Origin: a virus
Strand: one strand, 5' to 3'
Length of the DNA: 64,000 nt
Virus record (IMG/VR): IMGVR_UViG_3300022231_000029
Positions 30,510 through 52,001 of the stretch are shown piece by piece. The notes beneath the pieces are model-generated. The model saw nothing but the letters and a program-made list of their open reading frames with translations, had not been told where the DNA came from and did not search any database. Position 1 is the first letter of the stretch. The number at the start of each line of letters is the position of its first letter. The position numbers and the translations under genes are program-made.

Positions 30510-30629
30510 GCTCCTCTGGAGCATCGTCGCCTTCGGCTCCATCGCGCTTCGCTTATCATCGGCTTCGCCTCCATGATGCGCCTTTGGCGCTGATAAGCCT
30601 CGGAGAGGCGCGATAAGGAACGCAGTTCC
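30510..30629. mobile_element. hairpin-arm element A (empty cassette)
   Basis: ATCGC-hp-TTATCA (30541-30558) and TGATAA-hp-GCGAT (30591-30614) arms with the same spacers as element B; no cargo ORF. Confidence 0.7.
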
Positions 30630-30639
30630 GCCATTTTTT

Positions 30640-31071
30640 TCATTCATCTTCTCTCTCCTTTCTCACATTGTTGGCCTCGCGAAGAATGCTCATAACTTCT
30701 CCCGGAAGAACATCCAGGTCGCGAGCTATATAATTAAGCATCAGGGAATAGTCATTCTCAGCAACAAGCACGAGAGCGTTTCCGTTTTTATCCTCAAACG
30801 GCGGCATCTTATCAAATGTCACAACGATCTTCTCAGGGATCTGGTGAAAGACCTGGATGGGCGCATTCAGAATGATTGTCCCATTATGAGGAAGATCCGG
30901 ATTCTTGAAGTCTGTAACGATTCTCCCATTCGGAAGCCTGACTTCCCAATCATCGGCGTTGTTGTCAACAGTCGTGAAGGTGAGATTGTAGGTAGAAGTG
31001 ATCCAGCCACTTCCCGGCCAGGACTTTCTCCGGAGAGGAAGAAAGGTTGATTCTGCTTCAGTCTTTGTCAT
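30640..31071 (-). CDS. hypothetical protein (143 aa)
   Basis: overlapping operon ORF. Confidence 0.7.
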   Translation of the reverse strand: MTKTEAESTFLPLRRKSWPGSGWITSTYNLTFTTVDNNADDWEVRLPNGRIVTDFKNPDLPHNGTIILNAPIQVFHQIPEKIVVTFDKMPPFEDKNGNALVLVAENDYSLMLNYIARDLDVLPGEVMSILREANNVRKEREDE

Positions 31072-31295
31072 ACGCCCGCCTTATTTAAAAGAGCATCAAT
31101 CGTTCTTTGTAATCGTTTATTCTCTGATACCAAACTTGCAAGGGCCGAACTCGGATTATGAGGATAAAAGATAAAATTATCGAGTTGAATTTCTCTAACA
31201 TTGTCATATCTCCAAACGATCTGCTCAATCACTGGAGGCACCTGAATAGATGTTTGGTGACGTTCACCATCTTTAGTAACAACAATGAGATACAT
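31068..31295 (-). CDS. hypothetical protein
   Basis: overlapping operon ORF. Confidence 0.65.
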   Translation of the reverse strand: MYLIVVTKDGERHQTSIQVPPVIEQIVWRYDNVREIQLDNFIFYPHNPSSALASLVSENKRLQRTIDALLNKAGV

Positions 31296-31556
31296 TTAAA
31301 CCTCACCGTTATCAAAGATGAAATTCGTGCGAACATACGTCTCTTTGAAATCTGTGATTTTCACTGTTGATTCGACCGGATTATATTTCCCGCTAAAAAG
31401 ATCTTCAACGTCGCAATAATAATCATAGACCACATACTCGCTTCCGATGTATTTCAGAATGCAGAATCCGGTGGAATCTCTCCGTTGATACACTCGCCCG
31501 ACTGTAAGAATTTCGATTGATAAATCAAGATCACCCGCTCTTCCTGTAGGATTCAT
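31296..31556 (-). CDS. hypothetical protein
   Basis: overlapping operon ORF. Confidence 0.65.
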   Translation of the reverse strand: MNPTGRAGDLDLSIEILTVGRVYQRRDSTGFCILKYIGSEYVVYDYYCDVEDLFSGKYNPVESTVKITDFKETYVRTNFIFDNGEV

Positions 31557-32149
31557 TAGAAACCTCTCTCTTTTCGTGCTTCAGCATAAGCACCGTTGAT
31601 TTTCACAGCGTCCTCAGTCTTTCCACCGCGATCAGGATGGTGTTCTTTAAGTTTGTCTTTCCACGCATCCATGATTTTAGCTACAGGAGCATTTCTGAAT
31701 ACTCCGAGAACGTCCCACCAGTTTTCTTGTCCTGGTTCTTTCGGCGCTTCAAGCTGCGCAAACCCTGAGAACGCTTGTTCAAGCATATCCGAAGACCCCC
31801 AGCGTTCAATGCCACGAATAGCATCAATGGTCTTTGAGATGGCGTGAAGGTTATCTTCAACCTTTCTCCACCTGTCACAGGCAAAGACCATTTGCTTTTC
31901 CTTATATGTGAAATACACGGCAGCACCGTGATCATGGAGCCCGGAGTAGTTCGCATACGGAAGATTATCCGCTTTGAGCGGGACGTTTGTGGAAATGACG
32001 ATGTTCTTTGCACCCATAAGACGCAGTTGTTTTACGAGTGAATCCCGGACAGCACCAAACTTCACGGAGAAGCGGGAATCCTTGGGGTACTTCGTCCGGT
32101 TCTGGCCCAATGGCCATTTTAGGGGGAAGTTTTCTGTTGATGCGATCAT
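31556..32149 (-). CDS. phage J-domain (DnaJ-type) protein
   Basis: C-terminal WWDVLGV...HHPDRGG...INGAY; N-terminal PLKWP...AVYF...ACDRW. Confidence 0.9.
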   Translation of the reverse strand: MIASTENFPLKWPLGQNRTKYPKDSRFSVKFGAVRDSLVKQLRLMGAKNIVISTNVPLKADNLPYANYSGLHDHGAAVYFTYKEKQMVFACDRWRKVEDNLHAISKTIDAIRGIERWGSSDMLEQAFSGFAQLEAPKEPGQENWWDVLGVFRNAPVAKIMDAWKDKLKEHHPDRGGKTEDAVKINGAYAEARKERGF

Positions 32150-32448
32150 AATTTTACCTCTGCGATAATAAATGGTGAATCTTCATATTTATGTCCAGCA
32201 AGCTCGATAATGCGAGTAAGTGTCAAGGTATTGTTATAAGTCATGTACTCAGACGGAACACGATTACAGACAAAGCTCAAGACGCTTTCTGTGCTGTAGG
32301 TCTTTTTCTTATCCGGAAACTGCTCAATCGCCGGGAAATCTGATTTCTGGTACTGAGGAGAATATTCAAATGCAAGGTCATCATCCCAGCGTTGAATGGT
32401 TCCGACATGGAGTTTGTCATTTAGAACAAGATAAGTTTGTTCATTCAT
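32146..32448 (-). CDS. stand-alone HipA N-terminal subdomain (HipS-like) protein
   Basis: HVGTI...FEYSPQY...FP...SFVCNRVPS pattern; no kinase domain attached. Confidence 0.6.
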   Translation of the reverse strand: MNEQTYLVLNDKLHVGTIQRWDDDLAFEYSPQYQKSDFPAIEQFPDKKKTYSTESVLSFVCNRVPSEYMTYNNTLTLTRIIELAGHKYEDSPFIIAEVKL

Positions 32449-32729
32449 ACGATGTAACTCTCCATACGACTAAGCTTCTGCATTTGTCTTAGTCTTGATG
32501 GCTCAACAAAAGTAGGAACAGGTTTTCCGTTGATGATTTCATGAATTTGTTTCCCAGCAATATCAAACTTGGTGAGACACCCATGAATAGAAATGATATA
32601 CATCCCTTCTTCTTTGGTATCGAGAATATTTCTCACTTCGTTTTCTACCATCAGAGCGGCGTATGCCATTCGGTTAACCGGGGCATGGCAAACGTCTTCT
32701 TTCGTCAGCATTCTTGATTCTTCGCTCAT
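32445..32729 (-). CDS. hypothetical protein
   Basis: ATGA-coupled ORF. Confidence 0.65.
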   Translation of the reverse strand: MSEESRMLTKEDVCHAPVNRMAYAALMVENEVRNILDTKEEGMYIISIHGCLTKFDIAGKQIHEIINGKPVPTFVEPSRLRQMQKLSRMESYIV

Positions 32730-32935
32730 TGTTTTTCCTTCAGATCCTCAATAAGTGAATCAATGCTTTCCTTGCACTTCTCCAGAAATTCCACGTCGTG
32801 AGTTCCATCAACGTAGTTAATGGGTTTATTGTTCCCCGTGCGGCAGATCACGAGATACTTTCTTTTGTTTCTCCTCAGAGCACCCGTGATGTGATTCATG
32901 ATGACTTCAGTTTTGTTGTTTGCGATGTCGAGCAT
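32726..32935 (-). CDS. hypothetical protein
   Basis: start moved to ATG 32935 (AAGGAG RBS). Confidence 0.6.
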   Translation of the reverse strand: MLDIANNKTEVIMNHITGALRRNKRKYLVICRTGNNKPINYVDGTHDVEFLEKCKESIDSLIEDLKEKQ

Positions 32936-32936
32936 T

Positions 32937-33341
32937 TTATTTCTCCTTGATGCGATAACGAACGTGACACAGCTTAGAAACGACTTCCGGAAGTGAGCGA
33001 TAAATGCGATGAGCTTCACGAGCGGTCATCCACATATCGCTTTTAAAGATTGATCCTGGTTGATCACCCATGACTCCGTATTGAGCATTGAAGAAGATGG
33101 AATACTCCATCCCGTCAACTTCATCCTCTGAAGCATCAAAGGATTCAAAATTGAATCCGGCACAGAACCCCGCTACGAAAGCAATGATCTCGTCCTGGGT
33201 GAGACCGCGCTCGTAGTTTTTACCTATGGACAAGTTGTAGACCCAGACAGGAATTTCCTTCCGGGTCTTTGTGTAGTTATCCAGGTGATCAGACGCGAGC
33301 TTTTTCAGCGCCGCATTTTTGCAGACTTCTTCTTTTGACAT
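32937..33341 (-). CDS. hypothetical protein
   Basis: operon ORF. Confidence 0.65.
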   Translation of the reverse strand: MSKEEVCKNAALKKLASDHLDNYTKTRKEIPVWVYNLSIGKNYERGLTQDEIIAFVAGFCAGFNFESFDASEDEVDGMEYSIFFNAQYGVMGDQPGSIFKSDMWMTAREAHRIYRSLPEVVSKLCHVRYRIKEK

Positions 33342-33568
33342 TTTCTATTCCTTTGTCTTTTCGTTTTCTTCATCTTCAACCGTCTTCGAAATTCAAGCTT
33401 CAACCAGTTCTTCAGTCTTTTCTCAATCCACTGCCGAGATTCTGTCCTATGGGACTTCCCGGAGTCAAGAACATAGTTACCCATGAACTTATAAGAAAGA
33501 CCCTCGCGGATCTTTCTGATTTCTACAATGACCTTACCGCTTGGAGAAATATAATGTCCACCCTTCAT
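33305..33568 (-). CDS. basic hypothetical protein
   Basis: ATGA-coupled ORF. Confidence 0.5.
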   Translation of the reverse strand: MKGGHYISPSGKVIVEIRKIREGLSYKFMGNYVLDSGKSHRTESRQWIEKRLKNWLKLEFRRRLKMKKTKRQRNRKCQKKKSAKMRR

Positions 33569-34041
33569 TTGCCCTCCAATCTTAATTCTGTTCCAGAATC
33601 CTTCTCTCCCTTGGAAGTCTTTTCGGGCAAGCCCGAAGACTTCGCTCGTCCGAGACGGCTTTGTGCTTGCTCTTCCGTCTCCAGAGCATAGGTGTGGGGT
33701 GCCACTTTTCTGACGATACGATCGCCATGAGGACGTTTGCCAGTGAGTTTTATCGTGATCTCAATCTCTTCCCCGTCCATATCCCAGCCGGTTTTATCGA
33801 GGAGGTCACGGAGGGTGACATTTCCTTTTACCGGACAATCTTCTGGCCAGGAGACATTGTTGGGATAAGGGATATAGCTTTTGGCATCCGTCTCCCCCGC
33901 GAAATAGTGATGGATCACAACATTGAAGGACTGCTGCTTGGTGAACTCGTACTCCGGAATGATCAACCCGCACAAGTTGCAGTGACGAAATCCCTTCTTC
34001 TGAGAGTCCAGGTGAGTGTTTCCGCATTTAGGACATTTCAT
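33565..34041 (-). CDS. Zn-ribbon-containing protein
   Basis: CPKC...CNLC. Confidence 0.7.
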   Translation of the reverse strand: MKCPKCGNTHLDSQKKGFRHCNLCGLIIPEYEFTKQQSFNVVIHHYFAGETDAKSYIPYPNNVSWPEDCPVKGNVTLRDLLDKTGWDMDGEEIEITIKLTGKRPHGDRIVRKVAPHTYALETEEQAQSRLGRAKSSGLPEKTSKGEKDSGTELRLEGK

Positions 34042-34412
34042 GTTAAATCCTTTGGATCAATTCCATATTTTTCGCAAATCGCATTAATTCTGCCCCAGAG
34101 ATGTTTGGGTGCCCATTCCGCAAGACCCAGGATTTCTGTGAGGTCTTTTTTAAACTCTGACATATCCGTAACCATTTCAGAGCCCATGATGCCCTTGATG
34201 TCTTCTTCATGGCGAATCTTTCTTCTGATCTCATCCATGCTCATGGTGTGAACAAAGATCCGCTGATATTCATGGGGATGATCCGGGCAAAAGTCCAGAA
34301 ACTTCCACTCATAGCCGCCATTGGAGCCATAGGTGTTTTCGTTAATGAACATGGAGAAATCATCCTCTCCAGGAATTGCTTTCATATAACCAATTACTTC
34401 AAAGTCTCTCAT
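34038..34412 (-). CDS. hypothetical protein
   Basis: ATGA-coupled ORF. Confidence 0.7.
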   Translation of the reverse strand: MRDFEVIGYMKAIPGEDDFSMFINENTYGSNGGYEWKFLDFCPDHPHEYQRIFVHTMSMDEIRRKIRHEEDIKGIMGSEMVTDMSEFKKDLTEILGLAEWAPKHLWGRINAICEKYGIDPKDLT

Positions 34413-35059
34413 AGAAGCCTTCTTTGTTTCTTGATCTCGGCAATGCCATCTTCCAGGAAGTCTTTCATTCCAGGTTCCATAGAGGTGACAGCAGCTTCCT
34501 GCATTTTCGTGATGACATAATCCAAGAGCTCATCCATCTGATCACTCCAGAACTTCTTCGTAGGATCGAACACTCGGCTGACTTCTTTTTCAAGGTAAGC
34601 GATTCGTTCGTCTTTCCTTGCAAGCTCCTGGCGACATTCGCTAATCAAATGCTCTCGCTCTGTCGTGTGATGCTTTTCCATCGTCCTGGTGGTCTGATAC
34701 ATGTTCCCGTGATCATCCTGGAGAATTTCGATTTTCTTCTCCAGGTTTTCAATCTTTGCTGCCTGTGCATTCCAGATAGCATCGGCCTTGCGAAGCTTCT
34801 CTTCCGTTTCCTGGAGCTTGATCTGTTTTTGATAAAGAGCTTCCTTGAAGTCTTCACAGAGCTTTTCAAGGGCCTTCACAGAGTGCTCCCCCTTGCCTTT
34901 ATAGAAAGGCTCCGGCACACGATTTCTCCAATCCGGAACTACCGATGCGCATTCGTCACACATACAGCCTTGTGGATGACTACTTCCTGAAGTTGATACA
35001 TAACCACAATGCTCACATCCTCCATCGGGAGTGTAAGCACCACATTTAGAACAAGTCAT
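34409..35059 (-). CDS. Zn-finger plus coiled-coil protein
   Basis: CSKC..CEHC..CMCDEC then heptad region. Confidence 0.7.
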   Translation of the reverse strand: MTCSKCGAYTPDGGCEHCGYVSTSGSSHPQGCMCDECASVVPDWRNRVPEPFYKGKGEHSVKALEKLCEDFKEALYQKQIKLQETEEKLRKADAIWNAQAAKIENLEKKIEILQDDHGNMYQTTRTMEKHHTTEREHLISECRQELARKDERIAYLEKEVSRVFDPTKKFWSDQMDELLDYVITKMQEAAVTSMEPGMKDFLEDGIAEIKKQRRLL

Positions 35060-35361
35060 TACTCTCTCCTCTTTGAAAGTTCACTGTTTCCGAAATCTAT
35101 CGCGATATCATGCTCTATGGCCGTAACCATTTCCTTGAGCTTTCTCAGCTCTTCCCCATGTTCATGAAACTTTGTGAACACAGTCTGGTAAGGGTTATTC
35201 ATGAAGTAGCAAAGGTTTCCGTAGCCGCTTCCTGGCCAGTATTTGCAGTAAGCATCAATCATTGCTACAGCATCATCAAGTGATTCACAGGCATGGATAC
35301 CCTTAACGACTTCCATGATGGTGAAATACTCAACGTCTTTATATTTCCAAGGGTTTTTCAT
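35059..35361 (-). CDS. hypothetical protein
   Basis: start moved to ATG 35361 (ATGA overlap, GGAGG RBS). Confidence 0.65.
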   Translation of the reverse strand: MKNPWKYKDVEYFTIMEVVKGIHACESLDDAVAMIDAYCKYWPGSGYGNLCYFMNNPYQTVFTKFHEHGEELRKLKEMVTAIEHDIAIDFGNSELSKRRE

Positions 35362-35714
35362 TTGATTGCCTCCGCTTTCTTCAGTTGTTCGCTCGCAAAG
35401 TGAGCATATTCTCCCCGCGACCAATGGCCAGCAGAGATTTTCTGCATTCCATCCTTCAGGGTAAGGTAACGATCCGCCCAGACGTTCCTTTCCTTCCTCA
35501 TGTCATCGTGCATTCCGAAGAGTTCGATGTTTTTTCGGTTTGCTTTTACGAGGTCGAGGCGAGTGTCCTCCGCCATTTGTTTCAGCTTCGAAATCTCGTC
35601 ATCCTGGTCTTCGATGAGCTTAATCAGCTCTGGGAGCATGGCAATGTCTTCACCTGCAAGAGATCTGATATTTAATTCCATCTTGAGCCCATCAAGAATT
35701 GTAGTCTTGTTCAT
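35358..35714 (-). CDS. coiled-coil hypothetical protein
   Basis: ATGA-coupled ORF. Confidence 0.7.
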   Translation of the reverse strand: MNKTTILDGLKMELNIRSLAGEDIAMLPELIKLIEDQDDEISKLKQMAEDTRLDLVKANRKNIELFGMHDDMRKERNVWADRYLTLKDGMQKISAGHWSRGEYAHFASEQLKKAEAIK

Positions 35715-35977
35715 CTTCTTTTCCTCACTTCCTCAAGGATCGTATCCGCCATAGCGGTACAGTCTTTATTTCCGTACTTCCGGAGGATTTCGATTTCTTC
35801 TCTCAGCATTCCGAGTTGCGCTTTAAAAGAGATGGCCTGGCGAACCCAATACGCTTTACAGAAGCAGTCTGAATGAAATTCTCCGCAACTGTTACAGAAA
35901 CCATCCTCTGAAAGTTGCATCTCCTTGTTCTCGCCAGACATATACCAGCGAACGTCTTCCTCTACTCGTAAGCTCAT
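35711..35977 (-). CDS. hypothetical protein with Cys/His cluster
   Basis: start moved to ATG 35977 (GGAGGAG RBS); CNSCGEFHSDCFC. Confidence 0.65.
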   Translation of the reverse strand: MSLRVEEDVRWYMSGENKEMQLSEDGFCNSCGEFHSDCFCKAYWVRQAISFKAQLGMLREEIEILRKYGNKDCTAMADTILEEVRKRR

Positions 35978-36180
35978 TGCTCCTCCGAAGTTTTGAGATT
36001 GATGTACCCAATCACCATGTTCATCTTCTCGACACTTTCCATCACACATTGAGCGACGGAGTACCCCATGAAGTTTTCCGAAGTCTTTGCTGATTCCGCT
36101 GATGCGATCAGCTTGTCGCGTTTCTCTTCCAGGGCCTCCTGGATCATGATGAGGGTAGCTTTGTCGAAATTAACGAGCAT
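35974..36180 (-). CDS. hypothetical protein
   Basis: start moved to ATG 36180. Confidence 0.55.
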   Translation of the reverse strand: MLVNFDKATLIMIQEALEEKRDKLIASAESAKTSENFMGYSVAQCVMESVEKMNMVIGYINLKTSEEQ

Positions 36181-42213: not shown

Positions 42214-42570
42214 TTATTCCGTGATGACAGAAAGAATTTCGTCTTCTTTCATGATCACATACGTTTCATCGCCAAACTTTACATCCGTTCCCGACCACTG
42301 TCCGAATACCACCGTGTCTCCCGGATTCACCGTGAGAGGGATCACTGATCCGTCCTTCTGGCGATGCCCAGGCCCCACCGCGATCACTTTCCCACGGCCC
42401 GGCTTGTCCTTGTGACTATCCGGAATGATAATCCCTCCAGGAGTTTTTGTTTCTGACTTCTCACGCTGAATAAGAACACGATCTGCTACTGGTTTGAAGT
42501 GGCAATCAGGAGTCTTCGACTCCATCGCGCTTCGCTTATCAGTGGCTTCGCCACAAATTGTGTTTTCCAT
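42214..42570 (-). CDS. groES: co-chaperonin GroES (Cpn10) with N-terminal extension encoded by a hairpin arm
   Basis: KPVADRVLI...TPGGIIIPD...GKVIAVGPG...V.PGDTVVFGQWSGT...MKEDEILSVI. Confidence 0.95.
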   Translation of the reverse strand: MENTICGEATDKRSAMESKTPDCHFKPVADRVLIQREKSETKTPGGIIIPDSHKDKPGRGKVIAVGPGHRQKDGSVIPLTVNPGDTVVFGQWSGTDVKFGDETYVIMKEDEILSVITE

Positions 42571-42990
42571 AATTACTTGCTCCTTTCAATGAATGATGAA
42601 AATTTGATTAATCCTGATTCCACAGATGGAATCATTTCCTGAATTGATTTGTAAAGAGGATCAGAAGAGAACTCTTCTTCCATTATTTCCATCTGAGTTT
42701 TAAATTCATACAGCGAACCTTTTGCATATCCCAGATAAACCAACAATGCTTTAAAAGAAGAATCTCTCCCCACTCCTTCAGAAATGTTGGAAGAAATGGA
42801 AACGGATGATCTCAGCATTTGCTGCCCGATTGAAAACTGATCTGCTCTATCCATCGTCTTGAAAAGTTTTCGAAAGGCTTTTGCTAAATTTACCGAATCT
42901 GCATATACCGACATTTCCGAAAGTTTCATAAATCCTCTATGCGCCTTGGCGCTGATAAGCGAAGCGCGATGGCAACGCAGTTGCCTGATC
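42504..42990. mobile_element. hairpin-arm cassette B carrying a four-helix-bundle gene
   Basis: 18-bp perfect IR 42524-42541/42953-42970; each end reads hp-TGATAA-GCGAAGC-GCGAT-hp-TGAT outward. Confidence 0.75.
42573..42929 (-). CDS. four-helix-bundle protein (23S rRNA IVP / Avd-like family)
   Basis: DQFSIGQQMLRSSVSISSNISEG...AKGSLYEFKTQ. Confidence 0.88.
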   Translation of the reverse strand: MKLSEMSVYADSVNLAKAFRKLFKTMDRADQFSIGQQMLRSSVSISSNISEGVGRDSSFKALLVYLGYAKGSLYEFKTQMEIMEEEFSSDPLYKSIQEMIPSVESGLIKFSSFIERSK

Positions 42991-42995
42991 CCCGG

Positions 42996-43355
42996 CTAAT
43001 CGAACAATAATTTTGATGCTGCTTTAGCTGCCACTCCACCCACTGCCGTACCCACAGCAATATCCATCGCCGTAGGGCCTCCAGCAACTTGCCTAGGGCC
43101 CGATGGTCTCTCCGGAGGAAGCGTAGGGGGTTTTGCTCCGAACTCGTCTCGGGTGTTTCTCATGCAGTATGCGAAAGCTGAACTCGGGTTATGAAAGTCG
43201 CCAATGCAACTCTCAAAATAAGCTTTCTCTACCACAGACAGCGCGCTGAAATATTGCATCTGATTCACCGTCATGCGATCTCTCCACGTAAGCTCAGGGC
43301 CATCATTCCCGCAGCTCACCAATACGATAAGCATCATCCAGATAATCGGCTTCAT
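42996..43355 (-). CDS. lipoprotein
   Basis: signal peptide with lipobox LVSC. Confidence 0.75.
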   Translation of the reverse strand: MKPIIWMMLIVLVSCGNDGPELTWRDRMTVNQMQYFSALSVVEKAYFESCIGDFHNPSSAFAYCMRNTRDEFGAKPPTLPPERPSGPRQVAGGPTAMDIAVGTAVGGVAAKAASKLLFD

Positions 43356-43669
43356 TCTCCGTCCTCCATTGTGTTATGAATAAATTGTCGTGAAAGCTTC
43401 ACGAGCGAAAATACTTTTTTGTTTTCTTTGAACTGAATGCCCATCTTGCATGGTGAAGACTGATACAAACGAACTTCAGCGAGCTGGGCAACAATCGCCT
43501 CCAGGTCTTGATTTCGTTGTTCGAGCTTTCTGATGTGATCGTACACCCGAGGAAGGATCTCAGTCGCCGGTGCCGAAAGCTTTTGAAGAAACTCTTCCTT
43601 TTTCACGAAAAGAGGGATCATGTTTCTCTCAAAGAGCCAGTCGAAAAATTTGCGCCAATCGAATCCCAT
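43352..43669 (-). CDS. hypothetical protein
   Basis: GGAG RBS; ATGA-coupled to lipoprotein gene. Confidence 0.65.
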   Translation of the reverse strand: MGFDWRKFFDWLFERNMIPLFVKKEEFLQKLSAPATEILPRVYDHIRKLEQRNQDLEAIVAQLAEVRLYQSSPCKMGIQFKENKKVFSLVKLSRQFIHNTMEDGE

Positions 43670-43809
43670 GTCTATTCTCCTTGTCTATTCTCGAAAAGCT
43701 TATCGAGACGGTCTCTCACCCGTCAAATAAAAAGTAGAGTGAGCGAAATCTTTTGAGCTTGCTCAATAAGATTTCCGAGCGAGACTTTGATAGCGGCGTA
43801 GCCGAAACG

Positions 43810-43840
43810 AAAAAAGGGGCGCATGGCCCCTTTTCTTTTT
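43810..43840. terminator. intrinsic terminator
   Basis: GGGGC-gcatg-GCCCC flanked by A- and T-runs. Confidence 0.75.
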
Positions 43841-43858
43841 CATCAATGTGAAGAGTGT

Positions 43859-44209
43859 TTAGATTTTGACAGATGAACCGAAAACATCATCCGGTGAAAA
43901 TTGCCCAAGTGTGCATGACGCGAGATCAACCTTCCAAGTCATGACCATCGGGATCTTGTCTTCCTTCTTGCCCTTGAGCTTCAAGCTGACATTGAAAAAG
44001 ACCGGGATAAAGCTCTGGCCATCAACCACAAAAACATTCTCCGGATATTTGATATCTGTCGCGACCGCTGTCCCGTTACCGCCAGATACCTCCATAGGAC
44101 TCTGGACGACCTTTAAAATGCCTTCCCGAAATACCTCAATGTCACACGAGGCCCGCGCCATGGAAAGAGTCATAACGATAAATGTGAATGCAATAAGGAT
44201 AAGTTTCAT
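43859..44209 (-). CDS. secreted/periplasmic protein
   Basis: start ATG 44209; signal peptide MKLILIAFTFIVMTLSMARA; RBS in terminal hairpin of cassette C. Confidence 0.7.
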   Translation of the reverse strand: MKLILIAFTFIVMTLSMARASCDIEVFREGILKVVQSPMEVSGGNGTAVATDIKYPENVFVVDGQSFIPVFFNVSLKLKGKKEDKIPMVMTWKVDLASCTLGQFSPDDVFGSSVKI

Positions 44210-44213
44210 GGGA

Positions 44214-44684
44214 CTCCTTTGGAGAAAAGCCTTCGGCAACAGTGGCTTCGCCACAAAAGCCTTCGGCAATAAGTTATTTATTATTGTAGGACTCGATGAT
44301 TTTGTATAGTTGCACTTTTATCGCATTGGTTTCACTGATTAATTCCTTCGCGTTGACCCCAGCATCTTCATCCAGAATCATTAATTGAGAAATAACCTCA
44401 CATGATGAGCTGTAAGCATAATTCAAGAAGGTGAGCGTTTGAGCTTTTGAATTTCTCCCAAACCCTTCAGCAATATTTGACGAGATAGAAATCGCAGCAC
44501 GAATTATCTGTGAACCGATGGTAAACTAATCGAGCTTATCCATCGACTTCACCATCGCACGAATCTTCTTTGCGTTTCGAATCGCATCTTTAAATACTGG
44601 TGAGTTCAATTCCTTTGCCATAATTATTCCTAGATTGCCGAAGGCTTTTGTAGCGAAGCTACTTTTGCGCCAATGGCGCTTTTT
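44214..44684. mobile_element. hairpin-arm cassette C carrying an interrupted four-helix-bundle gene
   Basis: arms ATT-GCCgaaGGC-TTTT-GT(A/G)GCgaaGC(T/C)AC-T(T/G)TT-hp-TTTT in inverted orientation; compensatory stem changes. Confidence 0.75.
44274..44621 (-). pseudogene. four-helix-bundle gene with one in-frame TAG (44526-44528)
   Basis: translated by hand: MAKELNS...MDKLD*FTIGSQIIRAAISISSNIAEGFGRNS...YNNK; frame intact across the stop. Confidence 0.8.
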
Positions 44685-44890
44685 GCCTTCTGATCCATCT
44701 TCCCCCAACTCTTTCTGCCAATCATCACTTCCAGACAGTTATTCATGATTTCCGAAGAGTGCTGTACCTGAGCAGAAGTCTTTTCTTGAATCGTCGTCGA
44801 TCCGACGTAGATTCCGAAGAGAAAAGACAGAACCATCAAAAAGCAACACAGTCTGTGCCCCTTTGGGATCGGATTGCAGTGCTGGCTCAT
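44630..44890 (-). CDS. small membrane protein whose C-terminus is encoded by the cassette C arm
   Basis: start 44890 (ATGA overlap); TM LCCFLMVLSFLFGIYVG; ends KSAIGAKVASLQKPSAI. Confidence 0.55.
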   Translation of the reverse strand: MSQHCNPIPKGHRLCCFLMVLSFLFGIYVGSTTIQEKTSAQVQHSSEIMNNCLEVMIGRKSWGKMDQKAKSAIGAKVASLQKPSAI

Positions 44891-45078
44891 AAGTGTGCTC
44901 CGATCACTTGAAGGATAACCGCGAGTGCGAGCATGAAACCGCAAACGCGGGCCTCTGCATCCGTAGTCAATCCATGATCTTTACCCGTCATGATCCCGGC
45001 CGTGATGTAGCAACTAGCCGCTACAAAGTGGCAGATGAATTCAATGAATCCCCTGTCGATCGTAAACTCAATGTGCAT
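44887..45078 (-). CDS. two-TM membrane protein
   Basis: hydrophobic helices; AGGA RBS. Confidence 0.6.
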   Translation of the reverse strand: MHIEFTIDRGFIEFICHFVAASCYITAGIMTGKDHGLTTDAEARVCGFMLALAVILQVIGAHL

Positions 45079-45457: not shown

Positions 45458-45468
45458 TCATTTGTCCT

Positions 45469-45494: not shown

Positions 45495-45497
45495 ACT

Positions 45498-46195: not shown

Positions 46196-46319
46196 AACTA
46201 CTTCCAGGAAGCGATAGCTACCGCGATTGCTTTACAAACTCCCACGACCGTATCACCCACAATCAGGAAAAGAAAAAACGTCAAAAATGGGTGCTCTCCG
46301 GCAAAGTCAAAAAAGTCTT

Positions 46320-46514
46320 TCATACTTCTTCTCCTGGAATAGGTGCTGCTTCAGCAATAGCGTGAAGCTGTTTTGTGACTTCTCGGAGAACCTGAATCCC
46401 CTCAAGACACTGATCGACTTCTTCCTGCGGAAGAGCGCCATCATTCACAGATAAGTCTCTTTCAGCAGCGTCGAGAATTTTAAAAACGATATCACTTGAT
46501 AATGCTGGCATCAT
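46320..46514 (-). CDS. hypothetical protein
   Basis: GGAGG RBS. Confidence 0.55.
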   Translation of the reverse strand: MMPALSSDIVFKILDAAERDLSVNDGALPQEEVDQCLEGIQVLREVTKQLHAIAEAAPIPGEEV

Positions 46515-46523
46515 GTCGCCCTC

Positions 46524-46724
46524 CTATTCGTTTGCACCACGGATAATTCTAAATCCTGTTTTACTTAATTTCTTCCGGAAGTCCTTATCCTCCAGACGGC
46601 GAGAAACTTCTTCGATCATCAGATCCTCGTCGGCATGTTTCAAAACTTCAGCTTCTTTTTCGCGTCTTTGTCTTCGCTCCAGGGCGATAACAAAAGATCG
46701 TTCTCCATCGTATTGCTGACACAT
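46524..46724 (-). CDS. hypothetical protein
   Basis: AGGAG RBS. Confidence 0.55.
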   Translation of the reverse strand: MCQQYDGERSFVIALERRQRREKEAEVLKHADEDLMIEEVSRRLEDKDFRKKLSKTGFRIIRGANE

Positions 46725-47010
46725 AATTTCTCCTATGGAAGCTTCATGTTCTTTTTCAAGTTTTCGAAAAGTTCATTGTCGTTCAGTTCATCACATTTGG
46801 TTTTGACTGTTCTGATTCTTGTATTCATGTTGTAGGCCCTCCGCAAATCATCTCAAGGTAAAATCCTCTGAGATATGTCATGATCTCAGCGATAGTGGGA
46901 AGAGTCTTCTTCACGCGCCGATATTTTTCTTCGCCAGTTCTAATGAGAATGCAAATGGAGTAATGTCCATTCCATCTTCCCGGACTGTGTATCCGTGGAA
47001 GTCAACGTAA

Positions 47011-47292
47011 TCAAGATTCTTGTCTTTCATTCTTTGCGCGAGCATATCCGGCCTGGTAGAAGTCGTAGTTTGTCCATCCCTCGGAGAACTGCGTGTCCTC
47101 CAGGAATTTGTCTGCTGTCGTGAGGAAAGGTGTCGGGTTAAAGTAACATGTCCCCACCTTCACCGGATCACATCTCCAGAGATAGTCCTGATAATGATCA
47201 AGATAATACTTGTAGCATTCACCCCATACGGGAAATGTCACCATCCGGGTATTTCTTCCTTTGATGACCACCGATAAAGTCCAGAGAATCAC
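47011..47292 (-). CDS. hypothetical protein
   Basis: operon ORF. Confidence 0.55.
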   Translation of the reverse strand: MILWTLSVVIKGRNTRMVTFPVWGECYKYYLDHYQDYLWRCDPVKVGTCYFNPTPFLTTADKFLEDTQFSEGWTNYDFYQAGYARAKNERQES

Positions 47293-47295
47293 TTC

Positions 47296-47523
47296 CTACC
47301 TCTCATTCCACCATGTCAATAAAGCGATCACCAAAATGTTAAAAAGGAAGATACCGCTGGAGACTCCCATCCATATTGAAAACCATGAAAAAATCTCGCC
47401 ACCAAAAATCATCCAAAAAGATGGGACGACGAAAGAGAGTGCAGCATTCAGCATGATTCCTGGAGTTACCCAATCATGCCAAAATTGTCCTAGCCAGAAA
47501 TTCCAATAATATTTTCTTCCCAT
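47296..47523 (-). CDS. two-TM membrane protein
   Basis: start moved to ATG 47523 (TAATG overlap); Trp/Phe-rich. Confidence 0.6.
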   Translation of the reverse strand: MGRKYYWNFWLGQFWHDWVTPGIMLNAALSFVVPSFWMIFGGEIFSWFSIWMGVSSGIFLFNILVIALLTWWNER

Positions 47524-47696
47524 TAATTCCCCCTCACTGGTTTTGTAATCCACATTAGAAATTCCCGATCCGACATATTCCAGAGGCAATCCTCATTGAG
47601 CGCATCCATAGTGAAGCGATTGATGAGAAACTGCCCCACACGCTCATGCTTTGACAGGCGAAAGATTGTCCACGCTATTTTTAGTCTTAGTAACAT
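47523..47696 (-). CDS. small hypothetical protein
   Basis: start moved to ATG 47696. Confidence 0.45.
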   Translation of the reverse strand: MLLRLKIAWTIFRLSKHERVGQFLINRFTMDALNEDCLWNMSDREFLMWITKPVRGN

Positions 47697-47916
47697 TTTT
47701 CTTCTCCTGACGTTGTTCGAGCTCGAAAACCATCTTGTTGGCACATGCCTGAAGAGCCTTCGCCACTTCCAGATCGGTCGTAACCATTCCTCTAAAGTCG
47801 CAGCGTTCACCTTGTTTCCCAAAGTAGAATCCGACAGCGTTTCCGGACTTCACTGTTCTCAAAACCCCGTCAGCTTCATAAACATAGTCCAGAGAGATAC
47901 CTCTACTCTTACTCAT
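47644..47916 (-). CDS. hypothetical protein
   Basis: ATGA-coupled ORF. Confidence 0.6.
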   Translation of the reverse strand: MSKSRGISLDYVYEADGVLRTVKSGNAVGFYFGKQGERCDFRGMVTTDLEVAKALQACANKMVFELEQRQEKKNVTKTKNSVDNLSPVKA

Positions 47917-48581
47917 TTCAATCCCCTTTTAATGATCGTATCAACGTAAGTGAGAATTTGTTCCTTCGAAGACTTATCCTTTTCAAGACTCTCTTCTGAC
48001 ATGTATCCCGGAGGAAGAACATCCCAGATTTCAAACCCGACATGCTGGTTCTTCGAGTTGCCGAGCTGGCCCGAGCCCCACATCTTGATGTAATGGCTTC
48101 CAATGAAAGCTCTCCATCTCATCGCATCTCGCCGAAGATCATCAAGTGACTGGCCATCAAGATTTTGCCGGTCAACCGCCAGCTCAGCAAAACCACCAGC
48201 ACCATTCGACGCTGATTTGATTTCGATGCCTTTTTCTTTCTCAAGCTTGCGGATATCACCCGAAGCCGCTTCAAGTGCTGGAGTCAACTTGACCATGTCT
48301 TCATGCCTGATGACTTTCTCACCCGGTTTTACAAAAAGAATCTCAAATGAAGCATGCTCTCCACTCATCGCCATCAGTTCGCTGATGCGTTCAGAAGCGG
48401 CCTTCTTCGCCGCGATTTCCGATGATGCTCTCACGGTGATGGAATCCGATGCCGCATATCCATTCACCTGATAAGTCACCGACCAATCCTTCGTGAAGAT
48501 ATCTTCGAAGTTGGAGTCATACTTTTCAATATCCGTTCTGAGAGACGCAACCTCAGTCACTCCATTTCGATTTGTTCTCAT
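47913..48581 (-). CDS. hypothetical protein (222 aa)
   Basis: ATGA-coupled ORF. Confidence 0.7.
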   Translation of the reverse strand: MRTNRNGVTEVASLRTDIEKYDSNFEDIFTKDWSVTYQVNGYAASDSITVRASSEIAAKKAASERISELMAMSGEHASFEILFVKPGEKVIRHEDMVKLTPALEAASGDIRKLEKEKGIEIKSASNGAGGFAELAVDRQNLDGQSLDDLRRDAMRWRAFIGSHYIKMWGSGQLGNSKNQHVGFEIWDVLPPGYMSEESLEKDKSSKEQILTYVDTIIKRGLK

Positions 48582-48766
48582 TGGTAATACCCAAACATCG
48601 CCACGCCAGCACAGATTGTTGCGATTGCCGCAACAAAATGAAACACCACTTTACCAAGCCCTTCCGATGTACTGAGAGTCATGAATGACCATCCATGATA
48701 AGCACCGTTAAGAAGCAATACCACCTGAAACCAAACCAACGCGATAATACTCATTTGAAACGTCAT
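48578..48766 (-). CDS. two-TM membrane protein
   Basis: hydrophobic helices. Confidence 0.55.
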   Translation of the reverse strand: MTFQMSIIALVWFQVVLLLNGAYHGWSFMTLSTSEGLGKVVFHFVAAIATICAGVAMFGYYQ

Positions 48767-48774
48767 AAAATCTC

Positions 48775-48963
48775 CTATTTTCCAAGGTTATCTGAAATCA
48801 TTTGTAAAAAAATCACCAGGCCAACAAGAATCGCCACCAGGTATTGCCCCTTCACCCAATTATTAATAAAGCTGATGATGGCCACAATCGCAATCACCGC
48901 CATAAGAGCAAGAGACATCGCAAAGATTCCGTATTGTAAAATAGCTCCCACCTCGTATGACAT
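48775..48963 (-). CDS. two-TM membrane protein
   Basis: hydrophobic helices. Confidence 0.6.
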   Translation of the reverse strand: MSYEVGAILQYGIFAMSLALMAVIAIVAIISFINNWVKGQYLVAILVGLVIFLQMISDNLGK

Positions 48964-48966
48964 CGC

Positions 48967-49410
48967 TTATCCCTGGATATTATTTTGTTCAAAGTAAGCA
49001 AGCATCTCTTCTTCATTGGCACCATTCTCCACCATCTTGATGCCATTGATGACTTCCTGGTATCGCTTTTCCATCGCCTGAAGAAACGCCTCAGTCAGTG
49101 CTGAATTTTTATGCAGATTTTTTCTGGCACTCGTTGTCCCGTCCAGCATATTCACCATGAGCATCTTGTACGCCTCACGCACGTTGGCGCGAAGGCGAGC
49201 ACCCTCTCTATAGCTCTTACTCATCACTTTATACGAGCCAAGCTGAGCGACACTCCAGTTCATCACCATCATCACAAGAAAGGCCGTAACCGGGTTCTTT
49301 GTCTCAGCAAGAATCAGAACACCCACGATCAGCATTGCCACAAGTTCCGGGATCACGGACTTCATTCCGTCGATCGCGTCCATAAAGAGTTCTTTCTGGG
49401 TTCTTTTCAT
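48967..49410 (-). CDS. membrane protein (147 aa)
   Basis: two TM helices then soluble helix; TAATG overlap. Confidence 0.7.
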   Translation of the reverse strand: MKRTQKELFMDAIDGMKSVIPELVAMLIVGVLILAETKNPVTAFLVMMVMNWSVAQLGSYKVMSKSYREGARLRANVREAYKMLMVNMLDGTTSARKNLHKNSALTEAFLQAMEKRYQEVINGIKMVENGANEEEMLAYFEQNNIQG

Positions 49411-49919
49411 TATCTGTTCTCCAGGTCGGTGAGTTGCTTTTGAAGCGACTCATTTAAGTTTTGTGCATGTTCCACTTTCGCCTTCCCTACGATCACATGA
49501 TCCTTTGGAATCGGCGGTGGTTCCGTCATGGAAATCTTTTCCCGATGAAGGCGAAGCTCCCATGATTGCCCAATGTCATACAAGGCATTGTCATCATGCT
49601 TTCTCGTCGGAAGATGACTCCCGAGATATGCCGTAAGACCCTTGATCCCCCGAATCGTTGGCCAGTTAAGTTGTGGCCAGGACTTGAAGATGATCTTCTG
49701 CTGTCTGATGATTTCATCGACAGTGAAAAGCATTGTGATCATTGAAAGCCCGGAAACGCGATTGCCAATTTCATTCAGGCGAACCGTCCAGCAAACTTTC
49801 TTGTCTTCAATGTAATAAGAAATCCACACCTTGTTGTCGGTGCTGAAGTTCTCAGTGCCAGACTTCAAGATTGAAAATCGGCGCTCACCCCTCGCCCGCT
49901 CAAGCTCCATCTTTTCCAT
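49410..49919 (-). CDS. hypothetical protein (169 aa)
   Basis: GGAG RBS. Confidence 0.7.
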   Translation of the reverse strand: MEKMELERARGERRFSILKSGTENFSTDNKVWISYYIEDKKVCWTVRLNEIGNRVSGLSMITMLFTVDEIIRQQKIIFKSWPQLNWPTIRGIKGLTAYLGSHLPTRKHDDNALYDIGQSWELRLHREKISMTEPPPIPKDHVIVGKAKVEHAQNLNESLQKQLTDLENR

Positions 49920-49920
49920 A

Positions 49921-50151
49921 TCAGCTCTCCCCTTTTTCCAGAATTTCCCGGACGATTCTATTTACTGCAATAACGTATTCTTCATGAAGCGGATCAATGC
50001 GCCCGCCTCTCTCCCAAGTGAGATCATATAAAATGTCGTGACACAATTCCAAGGCCGAAAGTGTCGTGAACATAAATGAATATGCGGTAAGTGGATTCTC
50101 AGCTAACTTTCGAAGAAGAACTTCTCTATTCTTTTCTTGTGTCTTTTCCAT
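49921..50151 (-). CDS. hypothetical protein
   Basis: operon ORF. Confidence 0.6.
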   Translation of the reverse strand: MEKTQEKNREVLLRKLAENPLTAYSFMFTTLSALELCHDILYDLTWERGGRIDPLHEEYVIAVNRIVREILEKGES

Positions 50152-50327
50152 ATCACTACCGGCACGTCCTTTATCGGAAACAAAATACCAAAATCGTGGA
50201 GATCGTCATCACTCAAGAATGCTGACATTTGTTCCTCTCCATCTAACCGATAGATCAGAATGGATTTCTCGTTTCGGATAACTATTTCGCCGGTCAAGGC
50301 AAGATAAACCTGGATCGCGTCCTTCAT
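50103..50327 (-). CDS. hypothetical protein
   Basis: first ORF after intergenic AT-rich region. Confidence 0.5.
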   Translation of the reverse strand: MKDAIQVYLALTGEIVIRNEKSILIYRLDGEEQMSAFLSDDDLHDFGILFPIKDVPVVIWKRHKKRIEKFFFES

Positions 50328-50400
50328 AAGGTTCAGTATATGCGAAAAAGGTCTTCAGAAATAAAACGTCGAAATTAAAATCTATTCTGGTCTATCGTTT

Positions 50401-50428
50401 AGAAAGAGAGGAGGGCGAACCCTCCTCC
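50401..50428 (-). terminator. intrinsic terminator
   Basis: GAGGAGGG-ttcg-CCCTCCTC then TCTTTCT. Confidence 0.75.
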
Positions 50429-50437
50429 CGGAATCAA

Positions 50438-51250
50438 TTACTGAGCGAGAAGACCAGCAACATCACCCTGGCCGCGGTCAGCTTCGAGGGCCATAAGGCG
50501 CTCGTAGTTTGAACGAGTAGCTTCTTCTTTTGATACAGAAGTAGCATCGCTAGACTCGTGCGGAGTCGGAGCGTTGAGAGAGTTGATACAACCCTTGATG
50601 AAAGAGTTGAAACGAACTGAATCAGCAGTCTTCACCTGGAAGACGTGAGCAGCGTTACCCTTCGTGATCTCAAGGTTGAACTCTTGCTTAAGACGCTCTT
50701 TACCTTCGATTTTCCCAACGTAGCTGATACGAACCATTGGATCAGCTTTCACAAGCGATGGAGTCGCAGCATTCGTAGGAATTTTCTCAAGGATACGAAG
50801 AGTCGGAGATGCCCAGATACCGAACTCTTTTCCGTTGAGGTCGCGGAACTTGTAGTAAGAGTTGTAGTAGTAGAGATTCTTCTCTGTACGGAACTCTTTC
50901 CAGTTTTCTTTCTGCTCTTTAGCGAAGATGTGAACTGTACCGAGGAGGTACGCTGTGATCACAGTTCCAGCGCGAAGACCCATACCGCCAGCTACGAGAA
51001 GCGGAAGGTTTTGCTGTTCTGGTTTTGCGTCAACGAAGTTAACGTCACCAGCAGCAGACGCAGAAGACGCGAGTGAAGCGAGGATGTCGAGATTTCCCTG
51101 AACTTCTTCAGTTGTCATCGTCGAAAGTTCAGCAACTTCTTCTGCCGAGAGAGAACCGAGAACTGCCGCCTGTGCTGGTGTCAGTGCTGCGAGAACTTCT
51201 GCTGCGAGAGCTGGAGTGCCTGCTTGTTGATCTTGTTGTTTCTTACCCAT
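50438..51250 (-). CDS. OB-fold single-stranded DNA-binding protein (tentative)
   Basis: start moved to ATG 51250 (AGGAG RBS); FGIWASPTLRIL...VRISYVGKIEG...HVFQV; own terminator. Confidence 0.45.
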   Translation of the reverse strand: MGKKQQDQQAGTPALAAEVLAALTPAQAAVLGSLSAEEVAELSTMTTEEVQGNLDILASLASSASAAGDVNFVDAKPEQQNLPLLVAGGMGLRAGTVITAYLLGTVHIFAKEQKENWKEFRTEKNLYYYNSYYKFRDLNGKEFGIWASPTLRILEKIPTNAATPSLVKADPMVRISYVGKIEGKERLKQEFNLEITKGNAAHVFQVKTADSVRFNSFIKGCINSLNAPTPHESSDATSVSKEEATRSNYERLMALEADRGQGDVAGLLAQ

Positions 51251-51300
51251 GTGATATCTCCTAAAAAATCTCCTCAGAACCATTCCGGGAGCGTTGTTGA

Positions 51301-51603
51301 TTATTTCTTCTTCCAATCACCAAGTAACATTGCTGGTACGAGAATGACAAGAATCGGTAATGTGACTTCTATAAAATCTAAAATACTTTCGTGATACTTC
51401 TTTTCGATGTTCCATTCAGTCATCTTTCTGAGAGAAATAATTTCCCAAGCAGGTCGGTTTGACAATGGGGTGTAATCAAAAAGTTCAAACTTTTTTCCAC
51501 AATACTTTGTTTCTCGATAGATACACGGGGTTTCTGGAGCGAGAAATCCGCTCACGGCTTCGCCGTTGCTCGCATCTTCGATGCTGCTTTTACATGTGCT
51601 CAT
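51301..51603 (-). CDS. membrane protein whose N-terminus is encoded by the cassette D arm
   Basis: ATG 51603 overlaps TGA of four-helix gene; MSTCKSSIEDASNGEAVSGF from arm; C-terminal TM. Confidence 0.6.
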   Translation of the reverse strand: MSTCKSSIEDASNGEAVSGFLAPETPCIYRETKYCGKKFELFDYTPLSNRPAWEIISLRKMTEWNIEKKYHESILDFIEVTLPILVILVPAMLLGDWKKK

Positions 51604-52001
51604 CTCTTTAATGTCTTGTGAAATGTTTTCAGTTTCATGCTCAGATCTTCGATCTTTGCGAGCAAGCCTTCGCATTCTGCTTTAAAGGAAGGATACAGAA
51701 GAATCGTTGCTTCGATCTGGCAATATAGTTCAGAACATGATCCGTTTGCGATAGATATAAACCTTGCAAAATCAAGATCAGAATTCTTTCCGCTTCCTTC
51801 TGCTATATTGGAAGGAATCGACAATGCTGCGCGATTCATTTGAGAGCAAAGATTATAAACTTCCTCCCTCGGAAGACCTCTTGATAATTTATAAATCTCT
51901 GTCAGGAGACTCATGCTTTCTTCATAAATTTTTAATTTTTTAAATCTCATCATTTGTCCATTCGTAGCAGCGCCGGAGGCGCAAGCAGCAGCGATAGCTG
52001 C
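51537..52001. mobile_element. hairpin-arm cassette D carrying a four-helix-bundle gene
   Basis: both ends read AGCA-hp-(A/G)AGCA-hp outward; loops GAA/GAA and GGA/GATA. Confidence 0.65.
51600..51953 (-). CDS. four-helix-bundle protein (23S rRNA IVP / Avd-like family)
   Basis: FKKLKIYEES...LPREEVYNLCSQMNRAALSIPSNIAEGSGKNSDLDFARFISIANGSCSEL. Confidence 0.92.
   Translation of the reverse strand: MMRFKKLKIYEESMSLLTEIYKLSRGLPREEVYNLCSQMNRAALSIPSNIAEGSGKNSDLDFARFISIANGSCSELYCQIEATILLYPSFKAECEGLLAKIEDLSMKLKTFHKTLKR

Follow-up and report, generated by a model that had tools for sequence, protein, structure and literature searches.

Genes of the PF05635/TIGR02436 four-helix-bundle family were first found inside the intervening sequences (IVSs) of 23S ribosomal RNA (PMC4990558; Ralph & McClelland 1993 as cited there). 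In the IVS of Coxiella burnetii helix 45, an ORF of this family lies in the loop of a 28-bp terminal-repeat stem that is cut by RNase III, and a mobile-element hypothesis has been proposed for it; RNase III cleavage is likewise reported for IVSs of Leptospira and others (PMC4990558). The family also shares homology with Avd, the accessory protein of diversity-generating retroelements (DGRs) (PMC10053308), yet, although large, it has had no assigned function since rRNA intervening sequences were described in 1993. In the literature we could search, no paper naming the pairing of this gene with complementary arms outside rRNA was found. Here, we describe three such genes in a phage genome, each boxed in by mirror-image arrays of tiny hairpins that sit at different places in related phages, and which hence look like a little-described insertable gene cassette.

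The window analysed, a 64-kb stretch of a 72.7-kb phage contig, carries four sites, A to D, with the following parts.

30531-30632, no strand assigned: site A, a gene-less copy of the two arms of cassette B, intergenic between ORFs 30205-30504 and 30640-31071.
42505-42554, minus strand: cassette B, 3' arm (downstream of the gene on the sense strand), three mini-hairpins with GAA loops on the sense strand, joined by tags; it lies inside the first 23 codons of the GroES ORF 42214-42570, whose Cpn10 domain starts only at residue 25.
42573-42929, minus strand: cassette B gene, PF05635/TIGR02436 four-helix-bundle protein of 118 aa.
42941-42989, minus strand: cassette B, 5' arm, starting right after the TAG stop of the upstream ORF 42996-43355.
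44210-44273, minus strand: cassette C, 3' arm, hairpin GTGGC-GAA-GCCAC flanked by two copies of a 15-nt tag.
44274-44621, minus strand: cassette C gene, PF05635 family, interrupted by a TAG at 44526-44528 (probable pseudogene).
44622-44710, minus strand: cassette C, 5' arm (z = -2.6 and -3.2), with the 15-nt tag, hairpins GTAGC/GCTAC and GCGCC/GGCGC and TTTT/AAAA spacers; it overlaps the 3' end of ORF 44630-44944.
51554-51589, minus strand: cassette D, 3' arm, two GAA-loop hairpins with AGCA/GAGCA spacers, read as the N-terminus of ORF 51301-51603, which starts at an ATGA overlap.
51600-51953, minus strand: cassette D gene, PF05635/TIGR02436, 117 aa.
51966-52001, minus strand: cassette D, 5' arm, AGCA, hairpin GCGCC/GGCGC, AAGCA, hairpin GCAGC/GCTGC.

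The initial annotation had described three four-helix-bundle genes, each between inverted arms of short hairpins and fixed spacers, and this observation is confirmed. All three genes match PF05635 (E 1e-18 to 5e-29; bit scores of 67.8, 101 and 75.7 against a cut-off of 33.8) and TIGR02436 (scores of 71-101 against a cut-off of 24), above the curated cut-offs, and the RxxxSxxxNxxE motif of the family (cited in PMC3936711) is conserved, with R40, S44, N48 and E51 invariant across the 13 sequences aligned. A profile built from the alignment of this gene family matches the pentameric PDB entries 2GSC and 2RLD. At the in-frame TAG of C, its 49%-identical relative in the metagenome contig L090 has Lys. 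The gene of D is 67% identical to that in contig L109 and 46% to that in contig L110.

The two longest of 203 inverted repeats in the window are 44236-44270/44634-44668 (35 nt, 91%) around C and 42505-42542/42952-42989 (38 nt, 82%) around B. Of 106 GC-rich mini-hairpins in 64 kb (stem 5 or more, loop 2-4; about 69 expected from Markov shuffles), 17 lie in the roughly 500 nt of sites A-D, as do 10 of 17 hairpins with GNA/TNC triloops. The spacers are as first annotated, B using TGATAA and GATGG-type tags, C TTTT/AAAA, and D AGCA and RAGCA. On each strand the 5' arm carries TNC loops (mostly TTC) and the 3' arm GNA loops (GAA, GCA, GGA). In fold predictions, whole cassettes B and C form 33-58 long-range pairs enclosing the ORF on both strands. 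Cassette D is the exception: it has two hairpins on each side within 50 nt of the gene, which is very unlikely by chance at about 1.7 hairpins per kb, but its long-range helices, limited to the tags, are only 4 bp each and its cognate arms pair no better than non-cognate arms (z = +0.3). Counts of intrinsic terminators (hairpin followed by a T-run) and of sigma-70-like promoters are at shuffle level, and none lies on the sense (minus) strand in the arms.

Site A equals B-left (42514-42552) joined to B-right (42934-42985) with the ORF absent; 39 nt are 92% identical to the left arm and about 52 nt align to the right arm, and the site folds as helices interrupted by local hairpins. Compensatory differences from B keep every hairpin paired, namely a paired one-base deletion (GGCAAC/GTTGCC to GGAAC/GTTCC), a T-A to C-G swap, and a 2-bp stem grown to 5 bp. 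Within B, the outer hairpin of the 5' arm (GGCAAC/GTTGCC) differs from its partner in the 3' arm (GGAGTC/GACTCC), while the tags are complementary. By our count from the arm sequences, about 10 of 14 hairpin pairs differ between the two arms of a cassette.

Relatives of these genes in at least eight other phage-like metagenome contigs (L002, L003, L004, L007, L008, L090, L109 and L110) carry tag-plus-hairpin arms as well, with TNC loops upstream and GNA loops downstream; tags are shared within a cassette, and most hairpin stems differ between its two arms. Absence of such arms from homologues in related genomes had been named beforehand as grounds for rejecting the cassette family, and is not what is seen. 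Cognate arms pair better than non-cognate arms, with z about -3 to -4, in 7 of 11 cassettes. In a sample of 100 family genes from bacterial and viral loci of many phyla, the median upstream/downstream inverted-repeat score is 29.5, against 15 for mismatched loci and 16 for direct orientation, and 56 loci exceed the 99th percentile of the control, usually as inverted short tandem repeats, although this proportion may reflect the sample and the looser score used.

The signs of mobility are indirect. Between a gene for 152 aa and the ~100-aa/260-aa genes, four relatives hold a B-type cassette, the window holds a D-type cassette, L002 holds a gene-less comb (an array of tags and hairpins), and L110 holds neither; L109, L110 and the relative L111 carry the gene downstream of the 260-aa gene instead, whereas the B-type cassette of the window sits in front of groES. 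At C, a 349-nt and a 151-nt metagenome contig join 44209 to 44711 with 50 other bases in place of the 501-nt cassette (44210 to 44710). However, this filled versus replaced polymorphism rests on two short contigs of about 88% identity, whose two studies may hold the same data. No movement was observed, and neither a target-site duplication nor an enzyme was identified. A Pfam scan of ORFs of 160 aa or more in the window, which leaves out 8.7 kb of the contig and the host, revealed no reverse transcriptase, integrase or transposase, although many ORFs have no family match.

Based on these analyses, we propose, with moderate confidence, that these are phage-borne members of the cassette type whose published example is the ORF-bearing 23S rRNA IVS, i.e. 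a PF05635 gene held in the loop of a structure made by two complementary arms. In this phage clade each arm is a comb of short constant tags alternating with variable GC-rich mini-hairpins. Tags of the 5' arm would pair with tags of the 3' arm while the hairpins stick out, and one strand, as transcript and/or as displaced single-stranded DNA, would therefore fold into a helix broken by four-way junctions that brings the two borders of the cassette together. In this view gene plus arms behave as one exchangeable unit that is gained, swapped, stripped of its gene and lost at junctions between co-oriented phage genes. The repeated tags and the folded base of the structure presumably give the homology for copy-choice or recombination, and the cassette is likely tolerated because the arms stay stop-free and supply coupled start codons for the neighbouring genes. 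The anatomy, the conservation of structure over sequence, the recurrence in relatives, the different sites in relatives and the gene-less copies are established by our data, whereas which nucleic acid folds, how the cassette moves and what the protein does, including any binding of its own arms, are inferred. Counts of wobble pairs do not separate RNA from DNA folding, being 95 versus 102 across the family and 69 versus 55 in the phage clade.

The interpretation in the initial annotation, a compact mobile or regulatory cassette free of recombinase and reverse transcriptase whose protein binds its own hairpin arms, is supported in part. A real cassette family with structure rather than sequence conserved in its hairpins is upheld, as is polymorphism among relatives, whereas binding by the protein and movement without a recombinase remain hypotheses and the link drawn to DGR target hairpins is not shown. 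That the trait is family-wide, that its nearest published relative is the ORF-bearing IVS, and that the hairpin combs also occur without the gene and around other cargo in related phages had not been noted.

Alternatively, though we consider this unlikely, the arms may act mainly at the RNA level within the operon, as processing or stability structures, such as RNase III-type sites or protection from exonucleases, that set the dosage of the small gene and its neighbours, with a non-mobile cassette and differences between phages reflecting vertical descent with loss. This agrees with RNase III cleavage of the equivalent stem in the Coxiella IVS, with the co-orientation of the cassettes with their neighbours and the coupled ATGA starts carried by the arms, and with sense-strand folds being slightly more stable and holding slightly more G-U pairs (the 69 versus 55 above). 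However, the wobble bias is not significant, the same junction holds two different cassette types (proteins 26% identical) with different arms, or none at all, in related phages, near-identical arms occur at two loci 12 kb apart, and the helices between junctions are only 4-9 bp, which is short for RNase III unless they stack. No RNA run contains the sequence.

Less likely still, the element may act as single-stranded DNA, with the GNA-loop mini-hairpins forming in strands displaced during protein-primed replication and being recognised by a structure-specific factor, either the four-helix-bundle pentamer itself or an unseen enzyme, that cuts and rejoins at the comb, analogous to attC or REP/RAYT systems. 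Loops on the 3' arm of each strand are GAA, GCA, GGA and GTA closed by C-G, the class of exceptionally stable DNA mini-hairpins (reportedly characterized by Hirao and Yoshizawa in the 1990s), two copies of one arm in L008 differ only by GTA to GAA loops, stems are almost purely Watson-Crick, and the phage encodes a PF03175 protein-primed polymerase. Against this, no HUH, tyrosine or serine recombinase was found among the ORFs scanned, the bacterial relatives have heptamer arms without hairpins, and there is no biochemical evidence that this protein family binds or cuts DNA.

Least likely is that the combs are a general dispersed junction repeat of this clade that promotes shuffling of any cargo, comparable to REP elements or the promoter-stem-loop repeats of T4-type phages, with the four-helix-bundle gene just the commonest passenger: combs do flank a tRNA-Ser gene as direct repeats in L008, occur around other small genes in L004, where the 5' arm of the cassette recurs in front of an unrelated small ORF, and stand alone in L002, L008 and L110, and are therefore not exclusive to this gene, but in the window the only comb sites are the three genes and A, gene-less combs share tags with the cassette in the same genome (A/B; L110), and the pairing of this family with complementary flanks holds across phyla where the arms have quite different sequences.

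More speculatively, and improbable on present evidence, the four-helix-bundle pentamer may be a structure-specific reader of its own comb that, together with ordinary replication, here protein-primed strand displacement, drives copy-choice insertion, swapping and excision of the cassette without any dedicated recombinase or reverse transcriptase. This would explain rRNA IVSs, the operon cassettes and the phage combs as one kind of mobile element, and would give the Avd/IVS protein family a general function. With three divergent cassettes and a natural gene-less control in one genome, and relatives showing cassette swapping at one junction, this phage represents a compact test bed, and the constant tags, variable stems and GNA loops make specific predictions on binding and cleavage that bear on whether this is a new way for genes to move or an RNA-processing device.

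Compared to DGRs, the cassettes share a homologous pentameric four-helix-bundle protein, which suggests a nucleic-acid or polymerase partner. However, neither a reverse transcriptase among the ORFs scanned nor a TR/VR repeat pair (no fitting long direct repeat) was found in the window, and the genes are not next to the Mtd_N-domain gene. REP/BIME elements, REPtrons (a RAYT gene flanked by inverted REPs) and integron attC cassettes likewise have short imperfect palindromes conserved in structure more than in sequence, one gene bracketed by them, and dispersed gene-less copies, but here the enclosed gene is PF05635 and not an HUH transposase, no integron integrase was found among the ORFs of 160 aa or more scanned, and no GTAG-type or R/L-box signature was seen. 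The Gut-1 RNA motif (Rfam RF01706) resembles the arms in being an array of tiny hairpins with differing stems strung on a constant short linker, but its covariance model gave no hit at gathering score on the window, none at E up to 10 on 42450-44750 (cassettes B and C) and none at E up to 5 on L003, L004, L008, L109 and L110; the tags have different sequences and differ even between cassettes of one genome. The heptamer-armed PF05635 cassettes of the bacterial loci in our sample, to which the G-rich heptamer repeats of Xanthomonas/Nostoc (PMC4692102) may be compared, place a gene of the same family between complementary arms built from short repeated units, with G/purine-rich units upstream on the sense strand, and G-rich heptamer-like tracts also sit next to the start codon in L004, L008 and L109. 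In the window, in contrast, the host is a phage and the repeated unit is a tag plus a variable hairpin, not inverted arrays of bare 6-8-nt tandem repeats.

The ORF-bearing IVSs of Coxiella and Leptospira share with cassettes B and C, and only weakly with D, a PF05635 gene of about 120 codons in the loop of a stem made by terminal inverted repeats, in a compact element (about 430-500 nt) that is sporadic in distribution, has no known enzyme of its own and has been proposed to be mobile. Known insertions lie in 23S rRNA helices 9, 25 or 45, whereas no rRNA or any other Rfam family was detected in the window, and the cassettes lie between protein genes of a phage, including GroES. The arms are tag-plus-mini-hairpin combs giving four-way junctions rather than one 28-bp stem, they are read as parts of neighbouring ORFs, and three divergent copies plus one gene-less copy are present in one genome.

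The region under study lies in a block of small minus-strand genes of a phage-like contig of 72.7 kb, for which searches of the INPHARED phage records returned neither a DNA nor a protein match. Searches of IMG/VR yielded only distant relatives, and the genes neighbouring B gave nothing useful. The contig encodes a PF03175 protein-primed family-B DNA polymerase (58987-61284), a GH108 endolysin and a GroES (Cpn10). A size of about 72.7 kb is large for the replication mode associated with such a polymerase, and no tRNA genes are present in the window. Two strong terminator-like hairpins with the shared loop ATTC and A/T-run flanks, at 29707-29739 and 58459-58491, are reverse complements of each other, 28.7 kb apart, and are located at the borders of the minus-strand gene block. 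The sites considered here are as follows.

30531-30632: site A, the two arms of cassette B without the gene.
42573-42929, minus strand: gene of cassette B.
44274-44621, minus strand: gene of cassette C.
51600-51953, minus strand: gene of cassette D.

All three ORFs belong to PF05635/TIGR02436, with scores well above the curated cut-offs, yet they are only 26-34% identical to each other. A profile of their alignment matches the pentameric PDB entries 2GSC and 2RLD. The C gene carries an in-frame TAG at 44526-44528, where its 49%-identical relative in L090, one of the related loci, has lysine, and C is therefore probably a decaying copy.

Among 203 inverted repeats in the 64-kb window, the two longest are the pairs that bracket C (35 nt, 91%) and B (38 nt, 82%). 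GC-rich mini-hairpins are only modestly over-represented in the window as a whole, with 106 detected against about 69 in shuffled sequences. However, 17 of them, and 10 of the 17 with GNA/TNC triloops, fall in the roughly 500 nt of the four sites. Read on the sense strand of the gene, the 5' arm carries TNC loops (mostly TTC) and the 3' arm GAA/GCA/GGA loops, and because the arms are inverted the same is true of the other strand. Within a cassette, short spacers ("tags") of one arm are complementary to tags of the other, while most hairpins differ between the arms; in B the outer pair is GGCAAC/GTTGCC against GGAGTC/GACTCC, and in D all four stems differ. Whole-cassette folds of B and C give 33-58 long-range pairs that close the ORF in a loop, on either strand. 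In contrast, D is the weak case, as its hairpins are clearly non-random but its long-range helices are 4 bp each, and its own arms pair no better than arms taken from other cassettes. Single-arm DNA folds give only modest z-scores (-0.6 to -3.2), and the case rests on clustering, on pairing between arms and on comparison with relatives, not on folding energy.

Site A consists of the left arm of B (92% identity over 39 nt) joined to the right arm of B, with only a few bases where B has its ORF. The differences between A and B are telling: one hairpin lost one base from each half of its stem, one changed a T-A pair to C-G, and the minimal GC-GAA-GC hairpin grew into a 5-bp stem on one arm only. 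All of these keep local pairing, which shows that the segments are maintained as hairpins on each arm and not as one long duplex, in agreement with the succession of four-way junctions proposed in the initial annotation.

A protein search with B identified 52-61% identical proteins on phage-like metagenome contigs, and their DNA was analyzed together with loci found through a neighbouring gene and through IMG/VR (related loci are designated L002, L003 and so forth). In L002, L003, L004-6, L007, L008/9, L090, L109 and L110 the homologous gene again sits between combs of tag plus mini-hairpin, with TTC-type loops upstream and GAA/GTA loops downstream. The tags differ between phages, being CATG/CCAT in L008, CTATNG in L003, GCTTG/CAAGC in L109 and AACAT/ATGTT in L110. 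Cognate arms pair better than non-cognate arms, with z about -3 to -4, in 7 of 11 cassettes. This hairpin style is specific to the phage clade, as 12 of the 103 loci scored have three or more such hairpins in their flanks, and 10 of those 12 are from this clade. We also considered a link between protein type and tag sequence. B-type cassettes share YATGG/TATCAG-like tags, but D-type cassettes of 46-67% identity have different tags, and hence no rule can be claimed. In L004 (1281-1303 and 4866-4900), L008 (4075-4095) and L109 (1320-1345), G-rich heptamer-like tracts (GGGGAAC type, up to four G-runs) lie between the comb and the start codon, resembling the quadruplex-forming GGGNATC repeats described in Xanthomonas and Nostoc (PMC4692102).

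To assess the wider family, the 150 nt upstream of 100 family genes, from bacterial genomes of many phyla and from viral contigs, were aligned against the reverse complement of the 150 nt downstream. The median score was 29.5, as compared to 15 for flanks taken from different loci and 16 for the direct orientation, and in this sample and by this score 56 loci exceeded the 99th percentile of the control. The arms there are mostly inverted arrays of 6-8-nt tandem repeats, G/purine-rich upstream; this description relies on inspected examples, as our detector for tandem periodicity in the flanks was too strict and recovered 1 locus. Flanking complementary arms are thus a trait of the gene family, of which the phage combs are a variant.

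Synteny mapping provides indirect signs of mobility. Four relatives have a B-type cassette between a conserved '152-aa' gene and a '~100-aa plus ~260-aa' gene pair, whereas the window has a D-type cassette, with a different protein and different tags, directly in front of that same ~100-aa gene. L002 has only a gene-less comb at that junction (5179-5278), exactly where relatives have a full cassette, and carries its cassette 5 kb away. L110 has flanking genes 85% and 76% identical to those of L007, but neither comb nor gene at the junction, and carries a D-type cassette downstream of the 260-aa gene, as do L109 and L111. The B cassette of the window, with arms alignable to the B-type arms of those relatives and to the gene-less comb of L002, sits instead in front of groES. 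Furthermore, two short metagenome contigs of about 88% identity join 44209 to 44711 with 50 other bases in place of the whole 501-nt cassette C, while another contig keeps B in place at about 97% identity. One related metagenome contig joins sequence like the 5' part of gene B (window 37859 / 42821) to the region around 37859, suggesting that a B-like gene sits at yet another place in that relative. These data fit gain, exchange and loss of gene-plus-arms units but do not show movement directly, and we saw no target duplication and no enzyme; no RT, integrase or transposase was found among the ORFs scanned.

The arms are also integrated into operon translation and kept stop-free. The 3' arm of B lies within the first 23 codons of the GroES ORF (42214-42570), which has a good Shine-Dalgarno sequence before the ATG at 42570, while the Cpn10 domain starts at residue 25. 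The hairpin GGC-GAA-GCC in this extension reads Gly-Glu-Ala, as it also does in the downstream ORFs of D and L003. The 3' arm of D is read from an ATGA overlap as the N-terminus of ORF 51301-51603, and the same holds in L003, which has a different cassette type. The 5' arm of C is the 3' end of ORF 44630-44944, and in L109 and L110 the four-helix-bundle ORF itself reads on into its 3' arm.

Taken together, the hairpin-armed genes reported in the initial annotation are confirmed. Its interpretation is partly supported: the analysis supports the reading as a cassette and, indirectly, its mobility, whereas binding of the arms by the protein and a mechanism that requires no recombinase are inferences only. 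The comb may be a more general junction module, since in relatives combs also occur alone or with other cargo. In L008 (4500-4830), a tRNA-Ser(TGA) gene (4611-4700) lies between two direct copies of the four-hairpin 3' comb arm, with identical stems and two loops changed from GTA to GAA. In L004 (1214-1290, 4793-4866 and 5413-5510), the four-hairpin 5' arm of the cassette recurs almost identically 4 kb away in front of an unrelated small hydrophobic ORF, and a third comb with other stems lies in between, all three in direct orientation. Gene-less combs are further found at 19851-19954 in L002 and at 190-337 in L110, the latter sharing the tag AACAT/ATGTT with the cassette of that same phage. 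In this window, however, the comb occurs only with the three genes and at site A. A reading of the hairpins as terminators or promoters is rejected, as the arms carry no such signals on the sense strand. A diversity-generating retroelement is likewise rejected for lack of an RT and a TR/VR pair in the window, although a 399-aa protein (24911-26110) has an Mtd_N domain, the N-terminal domain of the Bordetella phage DGR target protein, followed by Gly-rich 9-nt-periodic repeats.

Two tests for strand-specific wobble pairing gave no signal separating RNA from DNA folding, with 95 G-T versus 102 A-C mismatches across the family and 69 sense versus 55 antisense G-U pairs in the phage clade, and no RNA run searched contained the sequence. 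Folding as DNA is favored by the loops, which are of the GNA class closed by C-G that gives very stable DNA mini-hairpins, by the two arm copies in L008 that differ only by GTA to GAA loops, and by the protein-primed strand displacement through which, judging from its PF03175 polymerase, the phage replicates. Among known RNA elements, no Rfam family, including Gut-1, matches. Folding as RNA is favored by the only studied relatives, the rRNA intervening sequences, in which the stem is an RNase III substrate (PMC4990558). Compared to these, what we describe is a phage-borne form of the intervening-sequence-type cassette in which the arms are hairpin combs.
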